Source: Octopus vulgaris (lineage: Eukaryota). Taken from it: a stretch of DNA of 64,000 bases. The position numbers were made by a program, and so were the translations under genes. The stretch is from NCBI GenBank assembly GCA_951406725.2, contig OX597820.1, positions 18,104,001 to 18,168,000 of the forward strand, given 5' to 3'. The notes below the pieces were generated by a model. That model was not told the DNA's origin, made no database searches, and was given only the letters and a program-made list of their open reading frames with translations. Positions 3,185-60,155 of the stretch are shown piece after piece (the stretch's first letter is position 1; every line of letters starts with the position of its first letter).

Positions 3185-3652
3185 TTAGAAAACTACTATT
3201 TTTAAATCTCACAACATGTGATATTCAGCAACAGTACTTTGTAGTAAAGATTGTTTGCCAATATAACATGGCAGTCCTGGTTTAGGACTAATGTTGCTGT
3301 AATTTAGCCCCAGGAGACATTGTCTCCAGCTGGCTATATGTCACGATCTGTGTCCTTATATATTTTCGAACTAGCTAAACAATTATTCTCTGCTGATGAA
3401 GAGAAATAACCCAGAAATCGCAATGCACAGATATTGTTTTGAGCTGAGAGGGGGTGCTAGATTCCCTTGTTCGAAAATATAAGAACATAGATTCTGTCAT
3501 ATAGCCAGCTGGAGACGATGTCTCCTGGGGCTAAATTACAACAACATTAGTCCTAAACCAGGACTGCAATGTTATGTTGGCAAGCAATCTTTACTACAAA
3601 GTACTGTTGCTGAATATCACATGTTGCGAGATTTAAAAATAGTTATTTTCTA
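3185..3652. mobile_element. Fold-back element (~185-bp arms) with hammerhead-like motif in the spacer
   Basis: 3185-3371 is the reverse complement of 3468-3652; CTGATGA at 3393 with GAAA ~14 nt later; arm is also homologous to 37490-37570. Confidence 0.8.
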
Positions 3653-4160
3653 ACAGAAACTATCTTCTGCTTGTAAGGATCATTCCAGAGATTTGAGGGA
3701 GTCTATTCCCTGTACTTTCCCTGTGTTTATTGTACCTGCACATCTGCTACACACAAAGACTACTTTCTTAATGGCAAAAAAAGACAGAACAAACACCAAA
3801 GTTAAAAAATAAGTCCTGGGCTCAATTTGTTCAACTAAACCCCTTCAGAAGAAGAAGAAGAAGAAGCTAAATAATCTTAAGTTAAAAGAAATAGTTAATT
3901 ACTGCATCATTATAAAAATGTTAGCTACCAATAAAACAGCAATAGATGAACTTAGAAATCTAATTGTGAAACAGACTAAAGCATGCTTAAACTGTTTGGC
4001 TTCAATCCTAATTGATGTCTATTTATGGCTTTTTGCATCTCGTGCAAGTTTCCACCATTTCACAAAATATTCACTAACCTCATCAGTTATATCTTTGATT
4101 TCCAAGAAAACCATTTATAGGCACAGGAGTGGCTATATAGGCACAGGAGAGGCAATATAG

Positions 4161-4570
4161 CCGCAGGAGTGGCTGTGTAGTAAGTAGCTTGCTTACCAAC
4201 TACATGGTTCCAGGTTGTGTCTCAATGTGTGGCACATTGCAAGTGTCTTCTACTGTAGCCTGAGGCCAACCAAAGCCTTGTGAGTGGATTTGGTAGTTGG
4301 AAACTGAAAGAAACCTGTCGTATATATGTGTGTATGTGTGTGTGTGTGTATGTGTGTGTGCTTGTGTCTGTGTTTGTCCCCCCAACATCGCTTGACAACC
4401 GATGCTGGTGTGCTTACATCCCCGTAACTTAACAGTTCGGCAAAAGAGACTGATAAAATAAGTACTAGGCTTACAAAGAATAAGCCCTGGGATCAATTTG
4501 CTCAACTAAAGACGGTGCTCCAGCATGGCTGCAGTCAAATGACTGAAACAAGTAAAAGAGTAAAAGAGTA
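4161..4570 (+). mobile_element. SINE family A (tRNA head, CORE-like segment, internal (TA/TG)n, AAAAGAGT tail)
   Basis: A box TGGCTGTGT(A/G)G, degenerate B box, gcaagtgtcttctact segment; head duplicated twice at 4120-4160. Confidence 0.9.
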
Positions 4571-4954
4571 TTTATCATTATGTTACAATGCTATTATACT
4601 AACGAGTTCCTTCTGCTTAAGAATCTGTAATTTCAATGACAATTTGTTTATGCTAAGGTGACAGAAGTTCTTTCAAGCCTCAATGTTTTTTTTTTATCTC
4701 ATAAAGAACTCTTTGCTAGTATATTTAGTTAAATATACAGGATTTCCCCAAATTATGAATTTAATCTTAGAACTCTTTGCTTCCGTGTTTGATAAAAATA
4801 AATAGGATTTCACAAAATTGTGTCTGGTCATGGGAAGAATATTACCTGAGTTGGAAACAGGTGAGAGTCTATGACAGGAAAGGTGTCCACTTCTAGAGAA
4901 CCTGCCTCAACAAAATTCCGTCCGACCTATGTGAACGCAGAAAAGTGTATGTTT

Positions 4955-5470
4955 AAAATGATGACGATGATGATGATGATGATGATGATGATGATCATCA
5001 TCATCATCATCATGATAACGATGGTGATGACAGTGATGATGTGATAATCATGATGATAACAACGATGAAGACGATGATGATGGTGTTGATTATGATGATG
5101 ATGATGATGACAGTGACGACGATGATGACGATGATGATGAAGATAATGATGATGATGATGTAATGATGATGATGATGATGACAATGACAACGATGACGAC
5201 GACGACGATCACGATAATGATGATCACAATGATGATGACAGTGATGATGTGATAATCATGATGATGATGACGATAATGATGATGACGATGATGATGATGA
5301 CAATGGTGTTGATTATGATGATAATGATGACGGCGACGACGATGACGACAATGATGATGAAGATGATGATGATGTGATGATGATGATGATGAGGATGATG
5401 ACGCTGACACCGATGACAATGACAATGATGATGGCAATGACGATGATGGCGACAATGACGACGATGGTAA
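4955..5470. repeat. Degenerate (GAT)n tract
   Basis: Visible directly; starts at an RTE-type tail remnant (4825-4960). Confidence 0.9.
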
Positions 5471-5673
5471 CAACGAAGTGGGGGAAGAGAGGAGGATTAT
5501 GATGGGGGTGATGGGAGAGAGGAAGAGGAAGAGAAAGGGAAGAGCGGGAGGAGGATGGAGAGGAGGATAGAGAGGAGGAAGAGGAGGGGGTGAGTTTCAC
5601 TTTTTTTTCCTTCGATGCTCTTCTGTTTCTTTGTACATGGTTGGAACCAGGCTGGAAGAAACTGTATTAGAGA

Positions 5674-6046
5674 CTAGCAGTATCGCCCGGCGTTGCTCGG
5701 GTTTGTAAGGGAAATAACTATAAAGCATTTTTAGAGAGTTATAGCCAAAAAATGGAAAAAAAAATTATGGTAAATTTTTTTTTTAGTTAAAAAGGTCGAG
5801 TTGCGTCCCCTAGACAGTCTGTGGTTTGTGTTTCTGATTCTGGACCCCATGTCGAATTTATCGATTTTTTTCAGAACTGGGGTAACTTTTCAAAATTTTC
5901 GCTGCGTTAGTTTTGAATTATGACATTGGGCTATGTGTGTGTCAAGTTTCATCAGAATCGGTTGAAAGCCGTGGTCAGGGTGAGGGTACAAGCAAACAGA
6001 CACACAGAAACACGCACAGACAAACTGCCGTTTATATAGAGAGAGA
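5674..6046 (-). mobile_element. Non-autonomous Helitron
   Basis: Minus strand starts TC(TCTCT ATATAAACGGCAG) and ends CCCGAGCAACGCCGGG hairpin + ~8 nt + CTAG, inserted between A and T with no TSD. Confidence 0.8.
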
Positions 6047-57742: not shown

Positions 57743-58132
57743 AGGTGCAGGCATAGCTGTGTGGTAAGATGCTTGCTTCCCAACCACATGGTTTCAGGTT
57801 CAGTCCCACTGTGTGGCACTTTGGGCAAGTGTCTTCTACTATAGCTTCAGGCTGACCAAAGCCTTGTGAGTGGATTTGGTAGATGGAAACTGAAAGAAGC
57901 CCATCATATATATATATATATATATATACATATGTATTTGTGTGTCTGTGTTTCTTCCCCCACTATTGCTGGACAACCAATGCTGGTGTGGTTACATCCC
58001 TGTAACTTAGCGGTTCAGCAAAAGAAACTAATAAAATAAGTACTAGGCTTACAAAGAATAAGTCCTGGGGGTGATTTGTTCAACTAAAGGTGGTGCTCCA
58101 GGATGGCCATAGTCAAATGACTGAAACAAGTA
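57743..58132 (+). mobile_element. SINE family A
   Basis: Family match; partial copies at 56450-56615, 57490-57720 and 59580-59795. Confidence 0.88.
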
Positions 58133-58177
58133 AATTCTCACTATATATATATATATATATATATATATATATATATA

Positions 58178-58760
58178 GTGAGAATTTACAAAAAAAACAC
58201 AAAAGATGAAGACGGGTGTGTAAACAACAAATAGATGTATTAGTTTAATGCTCGGGAAGTGAGAAAGTCTTTCACATTTCGAGCCTATGCTCTTCAACAG
58301 AAATGAACACATGAACATGTTTTTTTGTTGTTAAAAAAAGTCCGTTTCCTAGTTTGTTTTTGTGTTTTCGTTTCTTGTTGAGTTCTACGTTTAATTGTGG
58401 TGTCCTGTACTCATATATATATATATATACATGCATATATACATGTAGATGTAGGTACATACATATATGTATGTATGCATATATTTTATTTATTAAATTA
58501 TTGTATGACTGAGCGCCCTCACGTCGTTTCGTTTTGTTTCTTTTCTTTTCTCCCAGTAAGTTTTTATATATATATATATATATATTTCTATTTTCTGCTT
58601 TCTCTCCCTGTTTATTTCTGTGTTCATGTGTTCATTTCTGTTGAAGAGCATAGGCTCGAAATGTGAAAGACTTTCTCACTTCCCGAGCATTAAACTAATA
58701 CATCTGTTTATTGTTTACACACCCGTCTTCATCTTTTGTTTTTTTTTTGTAAATTCTCAC
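58178..58760. mobile_element. Fold-back pair of CTGTTGA-core elements (~140-bp arms, ~300-bp spacer) bounded by (TA)n
   Basis: 58178-58318 is the near-identical reverse complement of 58621-58760. Confidence 0.85.
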
Positions 58761-59244
58761 TATATATATATATATATATATATATATATTGTGAGACTTT
58801 ACAAAAAAACAAAAGACGAAGGCGAACCTTCACAAAAGTAAGAGAGAGAGAGAGAGAGAGGGAGGGAGAGAGAGAGAAAGTAAAAAGGAAAATGTTCCTT
58901 GCATTTGAAAACTATGGAAATTATTTAAAGAAACATTTAATTTAATTTTTCCACAATTTAATTATTTTTCATGCTTTACTCTAAGTTGAAAAAGTCACAA
59001 AGACTGAAGCCGGTACTAAAATGTTCTTCACGATAAAATTATTTTAGTATTTTATACCTTGTCCTATTTTCCTATTTTCCCTAATCCCAGGGACTCCCAG
59101 GGAGTATTATTAGGATATTCAATTTCTAAAGGGCCGCTTAAATGGGGCTCCTCTATTTTTACTGCATTTGCCTCGGTCCTACGTTTGTTGATTAAACTAT
59201 GATCAGCCTCAGTGCTTAGCACATTTGCAGAAATAAGATTGGGC

Positions 59245-59429
59245 GTGGCACGTAAAAAGCATCCACTACACTCGCGGAGTGGTTGGCGTTAGGAAGGGCA
59301 TCCAGCTGTAGAAACACTGCCAGATCAGACTGGAGCCTGGTGCAGCCCCTGGCTTCCCAGACCCCAGTCGAACCGTCCAACCCGTGCTAGTGCGGAAAAC
59401 GGACGTTAAACGATGATGATGATGATGAT
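59245..59429 (+). mobile_element. RTE 3'-end fragment
   Basis: Family match; another copy at 60272-60580. Confidence 0.88.
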
Positions 59430-59834
59430 TCTAAATACCTTCACATACATTCAAATCAAGATAAAGTTATAACAGGTACGTTTCAAGTGTGGTAGTGTGA
59501 ATATTTATATTTTGTAGTTCATGAAACTTACGTCTAGTATGTGTATGTGTGTGTGTGTGTGTGTGTTTGTGTGTGTGTGTGTGTCTTTGTGTCTGTGTTT
59601 GTCCCCCCCACCAATGAATGATAGAGTGTTTACATCCCCGTAACCTAGCAGTTCAGCAAAAGAATCCAATAGAAGAATTACTTGGTTACTAAACAAAAAG
59701 TCCTGGGTTCAATTGAAACTCAACTGAAACTTTTTAAGGCAGTGCTCCAGCATGGCTGCAATCAAATGACTGAAACATATAAAAGAATAAAAGAATATAC
59801 ATAGTATTGTAGTTCACTTGAAGCATTGTATATA

Positions 59835-60155
59835 GTTTGTAAAGAATAAAATGTTTGGAATGGTACAACAATGCACTATAATACAGACAATGGACTATAT
59901 ACCTGATGTAATTTAGCCATCCATAGACTGATATGATATTTTGGAATAATATTCCTTCTTCAGATATTCTTAGATGGAGTTGCCATTAGAAAACCGATTA
60001 TAGCAGCGACTCCATCTAAGAATATCTGAAGAAGGAATTTTATTCAGAAATATCATATCAGACTATGGATGACTAAATTACAACAGGTATACACAGCCCA
60101 CTGTCTGTATTATAGTACATTGTTGTACCATTCCAAACTTTTTATTCTTACAAAC
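59835..60155. mobile_element. Fold-back (~150-bp arms) with canonical CTGAAGA hammerhead core in both arms
   Basis: ATAT-CTGAAGA-AG-GAAT-TTT-ATTC-A-GAAA-TATC-ATAT at 60022-60058, mirrored near 59935-59965. Confidence 0.82.

Follow-up and report, generated by a model that had tools for sequence, protein, structure and literature searches.

Insertions of endonuclease-containing Penelope-like elements (EN+ PLEs) are described as carrying an inverted, 5′-truncated pseudo-long terminal repeat (pLTR) and a one-sided tail of 30-40 bp (Craig et al. 2021, PMC8557442), and the head-to-head arrangement is reported as the most frequent (Arkhipova et al. 2013, PMC3846280). According to PMC8557442, it is not resolved how PLEs come to have inverted ends and one-sided tails. 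In vitro, both target strands are cleaved and extended by the Poseidon element of Anolis (PAc), and two reverse transcriptase (RT) starts bound its tail (Frangieh et al. 2024, PMC11167929). Here, we analyse nine inverted repeats found in a 64,000-nt stretch of the Octopus vulgaris genome (assembly GCA_951406725.2, contig OX597820.1, positions 18,104,001 to 18,168,000 of the forward strand; hereafter the window), together with their relatives in the 2.8-Gb assembly. Most of these fold-backs are probably single insertions of 5′-truncated, hammerhead-bearing pLTRs of PLEs or of their non-coding derivatives, arranged head to head and likely formed by an enzyme that primes from both cut target strands. 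Their architecture is that of the published "inverted 5′-truncated pLTR plus tail" insertion, of which the octopus families are new members.

All nine inverted repeats listed by the initial annotation are present, with arms that are 77-98% identical after re-alignment, and 19 inverted alignments were recovered in the window against none in all five shuffled windows used as a control. Designating each repeat and its family by its first position, arm identity is 91.5% for 3185, 78.6% for 12420, 97.7% for 17461, 81.4% for 40919, 88.4% for 41716, 84.4% for 50005 (79% over a longer 241-nt alignment), 76.7% for 55695, 97.9% for 58178 and 90.1% for 59835. Several elements extend past the limits first assigned to them through a one-sided tail. 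The estimate of at least seven families holds, since cross-comparison of the right arms gives a strong match only between 50005 and 58178, so that the nine repeats form eight groups. In genomic copies outside the window, each of the eight families carries its hammerhead motif on a single strand, which fixes the direction of the family; pairs are termed head to head when their hammerhead-sense 3′ ends point outward and tail to tail when they point inward. As the initial annotation had proposed, all nine window pairs share one polarity, with the hammerhead-sense 3′ end of the family outward.

This polarity extends well beyond the window. For each family, the best-scoring genomic copies were viewed with 1.5 kb on each side, window copies and two duplicate loci having been dropped. 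Inverted partners within 300 nt lie upstream versus downstream at 14:0 for family 3185 (29 loci), 11:1 for 12420 (29), 15:0 for 17461 (28), 21:0 for 40919 (28), 5:0 for 41716 (29) and 10:0 for 59835 (29), which amounts to 76 head-to-head against one tail-to-tail pair in 172 loci. The count for family 40919 is inflated because its query held its own palindrome; without it, the ratio is 55:1 in 144 loci, and the sole downstream case is a locally duplicated fold-back. In a blind sample of 90 stretches of 10 kb at round coordinates (900 kb), the polarity of the families is 10:0, and four controls resembling short interspersed elements (SINEs) gave 10:10, 3:2, 0:0 and 8:4 within 1 kb, with no comparable bias. 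A 44-nt exact marker of family 17461 has 1,302 genomic copies; among 100 listed matches, all on contig C1, there are 20 head-to-head pairs and one tail-to-tail pair within 2 kb, where 0.09 close pairs are expected. The same polarity is shown by six of the eight families but does not hold for every family: fold-backs within 300 nt were seen in 0 of 28 loci of family 58178 and 0 of 29 of family 55695, and the two pooled have three inverted neighbours upstream and two downstream within 1.5 kb. Neither has a close pair among their 34 blind-sample matches, a count in which the two may overlap. Across families, the fold-back rate ranges from 0 of 57 loci to about half of the loci.

The hammerheads themselves were scored with a scan that tolerated a covarying 3:8 pair, a single unpaired base ahead of stem II and one mismatch; three families missed by a scan for the canonical core were recovered once 3:8 covariation was allowed. 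The motif, initially assigned to each repeat, was scored in six of the nine window copies, the exceptions being 3185, where it is decayed and lies in the spacer, 40919, whose core is cut off at the junction, and 41716, where the base of stem II is unpaired in the window copy and in most family copies. Seven of the 12 best scan hits fall within the 10% of the window near the repeats, and six shuffles gave 1-6 hits in total. Rfam returned no hit on the window at gathering threshold, and no hammerhead is found among 150 listed of 387 matches at E<=10. Among genomic copies, sense hits number 28/28, 27/29, 22/29, 21/29, 17/28, 13/28, 5/29 and 2/29 per family; antisense hits are absent from six families and number 4/28 and 3/29 in the other two, and in both low-scoring families the motif is recognisable in 29/29 copies. 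The hammerhead sits in the pLTR, in sense with the open reading frame (ORF), a feature of membership in the EN+ PLEs.

Octopus motifs resemble the minimal type I hammerheads reported from metazoan PLEs (Cervera and de la Pena 2014, PMC4209133) in their core with an unpaired base before stem II, their palindromic stem III and a U3:A8 covariant core, and that paper already describes opposite-strand pairs spaced 100-700 bp apart. Family-wide departures from the consensus, counted in scored copies, are G3:C8 in 20/21 copies of family 12420, A6U/C/G in 17/17 of 58178 and A13C in 28/28 of 17461, and family 41716 has a family-wide C-C at the base of stem II. The G3:C8, A6U/C/G and A13C cores, all putative ribozymes, were not met in the passages of PMC4209133 that were compared. 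Folding of five hammerhead regions was no more stable than that of shuffles (z -0.7 to +0.6), which is expected for minimal motifs and therefore uninformative. The work of Lunse et al. reportedly covers such hammerhead variants and may describe these cores. A strict scan of the 126 inverted-repeat rows of the blind sample scored 10, eight outward (two from one cluster) and two inward; with only 10 of 126 rows scored, a PLE origin cannot be claimed for most genomic fold-backs.

The Penelope-like origin first put forward is supported, but the proposed connection of every family to a PLE ORF was made for only some of them, strongly for 17461 and 41716 and more weakly for 59835 and 58178. A GIY-YIG search of the genome gave 150 scored matches, many of them in 781-aa frames, and a 781-aa frame common to many copies suggests recent activity. 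In one 781-aa element, an RT with a C-terminal GIY-YIG domain and a Cys-rich linker is accompanied by an upstream frame of 359 aa, and each end has a hammerhead. Locus L271 (C16:20834500-20842500) holds a 4.8-kb PLE that appears intact, in which a 359-aa frame without clear Pfam family lies upstream of a 781-aa RT/GIY-YIG frame. A CxxxxCxxC linker is visible in L271, L272 and L375; the combination of C-terminal GIY-YIG with Cys-rich linker resembles that of the published Neptune and Nematis elements. In family 17461, locus L272 comprises an outward-pointing inverted pLTR, a GIY-YIG ORF (E 3e-7) and a sense pLTR, and the same ORF end lies upstream in L143/L381 (93% identity). Family 41716 occurs in sense at two RT/EN genes, 1.3 kb downstream in one case and 1.1 kb upstream in the other (RVT_1 + GIY-YIG, L375 and L373). 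Long copies of family 59835 start in a broken GIY-YIG frame (E 5.7e-4, under the Pfam cut-off), and family 58178 has weak EN remnants upstream in two loci; among the broken GIY-YIG remnants upstream in sense of these two families, tblastn E values of 1.5e-5 and 1.8e-4 were obtained. An EN piece near one 55695 copy lies downstream and probably belongs to a neighbour. Within the window, tblastn with three queries found no PLE ORF.

That each fold-back of the tested families results from one insertion event is indicated by target duplications and shared rare variants. Non-simple direct repeats of at least 8 nt flank the outer ends of 10/42 fold-backs in five families, against 0.8 expected from shuffled pairings (maximum 3); nine of these ten target duplications are 11-12 nt long and one is TA-like. 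Many fold-backs end in (TA)n, so that a target duplication is unreadable there. In family 17461, rare variants found in both arms number 16 against 0.39 expected, and common ones 49 against 6.1; in a few pairs, the two arms carry different subfamily variants. Junctions of this family are variable, overlapping by 0-5 nt in 33/50 and holding short inserts in 14. The start of short solo copies, and of most arms, lies 40-64 nt upstream of the core, a position that may correspond to the RNA 5′ end. A common integration mechanism, as initially suggested, therefore stands in the sense of one insertion event per fold-back in the tested families, on the basis of target duplications and shared rare variants, but not as one mechanism for all nine repeats.

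The one-sided tail was counted in family 17461 on 62 fold-backs: 49 new loci, 12 examined earlier and the window's own. The new loci came, in listed order, from 68 places, of which those already examined, three anomalous ones and the final ten on the list were set aside. Because a pattern match needed both hammerheads and an anchor spacing of 35-90 nt, very tight and very asymmetric junctions are under-sampled. A tail of ~36 nt is present at exactly one end in 57/57 scorable fold-backs. Among four further loci, three are one-tailed and one is complex, which brings the total to 60/61, and solo copies of the family have the tail in 3/11. By eye, the tail is one-sided in 6/9 loci of family 59835 and 7/8 of 12420, and the ends are unequal in 4/4 of 41716. 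Families 3185 and 40919 are not fair tests because their queries held the tail, and no tail was seen in 58178 and 55695. Separately, the prediction that the tail lies on the shorter arm, which had held in 8/9 loci by eye at first, was not confirmed: the overall split is 31:18 (p=0.085), new loci alone give 24:14 (p=0.14), and a looser aligner gives 34:21.

Altogether, the octopus fold-backs agree with published EN+ PLEs (PMC8557442, PMC3846280) in their head-to-head ends, tail at one end and (TA)n targets, and the target duplications are similar, 8-10 bp in rotifers versus 11-12 in octopus. They differ in that nearly all octopus copies are 100-500 bp stubs without ORF, that tails reach ~45-55 nt in some families and that the fold-back rate varies sharply between families; in addition, the one-tail rule, published as frequent, is counted here (57/57). 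As for PAc, targets are AT-rich; inverted products, however, were not reconstructed in the passages of that study that were compared, and it is we who infer one tail per fold-back from two starts.

The preferred reading, insertion by priming from both cut strands, starts from what is directly observed: polarity, target duplications, variable junctions, the one-sided tail, shared rare variants and RT/GIY-YIG links in four families. A GIY-YIG nuclease would nick both strands of AT-rich or (TA)n DNA, ~11-12 nt apart. Of the two 3′-OH ends, one would then start reverse transcription at the site that bounds the tail distally and the other at the proximal site, probably with the same RNA as template. 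The resulting cDNAs, both short, would run toward the RNA 5′ end and be joined through a few bases of microhomology. LINE-1 twin priming reportedly proceeds in a like manner, both target ends priming on one RNA and the cDNAs joining by microhomology. The second LINE-1 primer is said to land far upstream, such that the inverted part does not duplicate the 3′ end, unlike in octopus, where the starts lie ~36-55 nt apart and the arms duplicate each other. A literature search in which subscription journals were mostly uncovered found no paper on octopus PLE fold-backs or on twin priming for PLEs. Two-start priming is suggested by the one-tail rule, the duplications and the shared variants taken together with PMC11167929, and two starts each used once would account for the inverted pLTR as well as for the one-sided tail. 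The stricter proposal, that twin priming is obligatory (on one RNA, each target strand takes one start and each start serves a single time) and that the same enzyme inserts the 353-nt retrozyme-like RNA of family 3185, is advanced tentatively, as its chances fall slightly short of even.

Several points weigh against this reading. The nine window copies have no clean non-simple target duplication. In family 17461, variants confined to one arm (105 rare, 63 common) also occur, and shared variants could also be obtained by later gene conversion between arms. The complex locus L148 has tails at both ends, and the tail showed no confirmed preference for the shorter arm. Fold-backs are rare in the two (TA)n-targeting families to which 50005, 55695 and 58178 belong. 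For families 3185, 12420, 40919 and 55695, no upstream ORF was found in 28-29 short and 2-3 extended loci each, a negative that was obtained with one Neptune-type query and few long copies and does not establish absence. Finally, the priming step is deduced from products only.

The alternative that fares best, though we consider it unlikely, is a snap-back, in which a short palindrome lets a single cDNA, or an antisense RNA template, fold on itself and be copied back, a nuclease then trimming one end to leave the one-sided tail. Self-priming on an antisense template is favoured in PMC3846280, where it was proposed for rotifer Penelope, and PMC8557442 ascribes the tail to nuclease resolution. 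Rare variants common to both arms of family 17461 also fit it. On contig C1, 8/20 head-to-head pairs have 3-12 nt between matches, the join falling directly upstream of the core of the hammerhead, at a short palindrome of the family; this junction hot spot falls outside the sampling of the tail analysis. Among 49 asymmetric 17461 pairs, however, 31 have the tail on the arm with the shorter inner reach: there, the tail strand could not template the whole of the other arm and the tail-less strand holds no tail, so that a single sense-templated snap-back would not account for them. The other 18 pairs may fit a snap-back, and its antisense-template form lies outside this argument. Left of 58178, at 58130-58189, 12 nt of the element 3′ end are mirrored across (TA)n, with a 5-nt overlap into the end of a SINE-like repeat, possibly through a snap-back on (TA)n; a further 3′ end is directed at the right-hand (TA)n, at 58791.

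That abundant elements inserted independently, in opposite orientations, at (TA)n hot spots is somewhat less probable still as a general account, since this cannot yield the 76:1, 10:0 and 20:1 ratios, duplications around the pair or the one-tail rule. Families 58178 and 55695 are indeed abundant (~18-20 matches per Mb in the blind sample), and their near copies have no polarity bias (3 versus 2). Independent insertion fits 55695, whose arms are each closer to copies elsewhere (87% and 91%) than to their partner (77%) and enclose a third element, so that this pair likely represents two separate insertions at a (TA)n hot spot. It possibly fits 50005, an old pair that may be either a fold-back or two insertions. 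The 58178 pair, in contrast, appears to be of single origin, with other repeat ends in its spacer, because its arms are 98% alike, against at most 94% to the other copies compared, and a private duplication is common to both.

That the repeats are DNA transposons akin to miniature inverted-repeat transposable elements (MITEs), or assembly artefacts, is highly improbable, for although the overall shape is a short inverted repeat and two other window repeats look MITE-like, most copies are solo arms, junctions vary, the two outer ends do not match, duplications measure 11-12 nt and long copies run into RT/GIY-YIG genes. Arm divergence is 2-23%, and the 3185 junction is spanned by a 99-nt short-read contig with 0 differences. 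The run behind that contig may come from the assembled individual, and no contig bridged the window junction of family 17461. Arms behaving as the fixed terminal inverted repeats of a DNA transposon were not found, given the solo arms, variable junctions and unequal ends.

Table 1. Arms, copies and spacer of the nine inverted repeats, in window coordinates
Feature	Position	Strand	Description
Family 3185 left arm	3100..3374	-	353-nt ORF-less tandem unit; passes the tail into the start of the next monomer; contig depth rises at 3105
Family 3185 right arm	3371..3652	+	Decayed type I hammerhead, core 3393 in spacer; stops at tail end
Family 12420 left arm	12420..12561	-	Hammerhead with G3:C8 swap, core 12543; tail-less
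Family 12420 right arm, short	12560..12686	+	Carries ~55-nt tail
Family 17461 left arm	17462..17598	-	Young family, pLTR of GIY-YIG PLE; U3:A8 hammerhead with A13C at 17567; lacks tail, runs into (TA)n
Family 17461 right arm	17608..17783	+	Hammerhead 17639; ~36-nt tail, then (TA)n
Family 40919 left arm	40815..40978	-	Has tail; hammerhead core lost at junction
Family 40919 right arm, short	40997..41060	+	Into (TA)n
Family 41716 left arm	41709..41801	-	pLTR of RT/GIY-YIG PLE; tail-less
Family 41716 right arm	41807..41985	+	Hammerhead-like motif, stem II base unpaired; longer 3′ end with tail
50005 left arm	50005..50232	-	Older relative of family 58178; A6U-type hammerhead 50126
50005 spacer	50233..50713	.	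Holds (TA)n runs plus fragments of repeats that elsewhere neighbour GIY-YIG genes; likely nested ends from other PLE families
50005 right arm	50714..50940	+	Same family; hammerhead 50818; old fold-back or two insertions
55695 left copy	55695..55891	-	Subfamily or age differs from right copy; hammerhead 55822
Family 58178 intervening copy	55940..56067	+	Between the 55695 copies; hammerhead 55953
55695 right copy	56163..56360	+	Hammerhead 56232; likely independent insertion
Family 58178 left arm	58178..58317	-	98% to partner; private short duplication common to both; hammerhead 58300
Family 58178 right arm	58600..58760	+	Hammerhead 58638; both arms end in (TA)n; another repeat end in spacer
Family 59835 left arm	59797..59983	-	~45-nt tail; hammerhead 59963; GIY-YIG remnant upstream in long copies
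Family 59835 right arm	59990..60155	+	Tail-less

The window is AT-rich and microsatellite-rich, to the point that a whole-window repeat search was swamped by microsatellites. Its inverted-repeat density, 14 against 126 in the 900-kb blind sample (9.0 per 64 kb), is near the genome norm and not exceptional. Not every inverted repeat of the window is Penelope-derived, since 6743-6986 and 54943-55184 are MITE-like, being TA-flanked with terminal inverted repeats of 35-47 nt. A tenth fold-back, at 24975-25225, has 88% identical arms, belongs to another repeat family and is flanked by (TTA)n/(AAT)n; it has kin in the adjoining 10 kb on both sides, and a hammerhead motif was scored there. It includes a segment that we take, by resemblance, to be tRNA-like, in which ARAGORN found no tRNA. 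At 29239-32441, arms of 425 nt, 92% alike and 2.35 kb apart, end in (AAT)n and enclose what looks by eye like a nested, broken non-LTR fragment of the restriction-like-endonuclease type, without PLE ORF. Solo copies of the same families as the nine pairs lie outside fold-backs at 10857-10945, 37485-37556, 38073-38209, 45652-45798 and 46590-46760, and further solo hammerhead-like motifs at 25983 and 60602. A broken fragment at 52929-53752, RTE-like by eye, has a PHD-like zinc finger.

Family 3185 stands apart, in that it resembles animal non-LTR retrozymes and yet bears the insertion signature of PLEs. Direct copies lie ~353 nt apart in 8/29 loci, and in the one locus inspected for it (L086), no ATG-initiated ORF of at least 40 aa is confined to the monomer. 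The monomer folds more stably than 100/100 shuffles (z -3.5), and its type I hammerhead has a 6-bp stem I and a palindromic stem III. A contig, guessed to be from RNA, runs from the end of the monomer into the hammerhead, which fits tandem and circular forms alike. With an ORF-less tandem monomer of 353 nt, a type I hammerhead and strong self-pairing, all recognised at the level of sequence, family 3185 is close to the animal non-LTR retrozymes, which measure 350-390 bp in mussels (Cervera and de la Pena 2020, PMC7229834; bioRxiv 10.64898/2026.07.22.740005), but differs from them by an extra base flanking stem II. Its polarity is 15:0 within 1 kb, and 11-12 nt duplications occur in 4/11 cases. 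A word search of the accessible text of PMC7229834 and bioRxiv 10.64898/2026.07.22.740005 returned no mention of head-to-head insertion with target duplication.

The octopus belongs to an animal group known for heavy RNA editing, and the initial annotation had imagined the fold-backs within an intron, as substrates of ADAR or sources of small RNAs. This idea found no support in the window: 12 window ORFs gave transposon-type or no Pfam domains, with no host exon identified, no tRNA gene was found, and no arm has the A-to-G skew of ADAR-type hyper-editing, that is, more than three sense A-to-G changes, the RNA data being assembled contigs only. Where arms carry 5-7 T-to-C changes, they are from (TA)n families, and the excess is found in the solo copies of those families as well. 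In a read-through transcript, arm-borne hammerheads are predicted to be locked in a hairpin, and such hairpins are plausible sources of double-stranded RNA.

The young family 17461, with its 1,302 marker copies, constitutes a data set in which the one-tail rule, the junctions and the shared variants can be counted. The consensus departures of families 17461, 58178, 12420 and 41716, which include this young and recently active family, are natural variants for the study of hammerhead cleavage. If the retrozyme-like family 3185 does bear the same insertion signature, this would provide structural support for the mobilisation of animal retrozymes by Penelope proteins.

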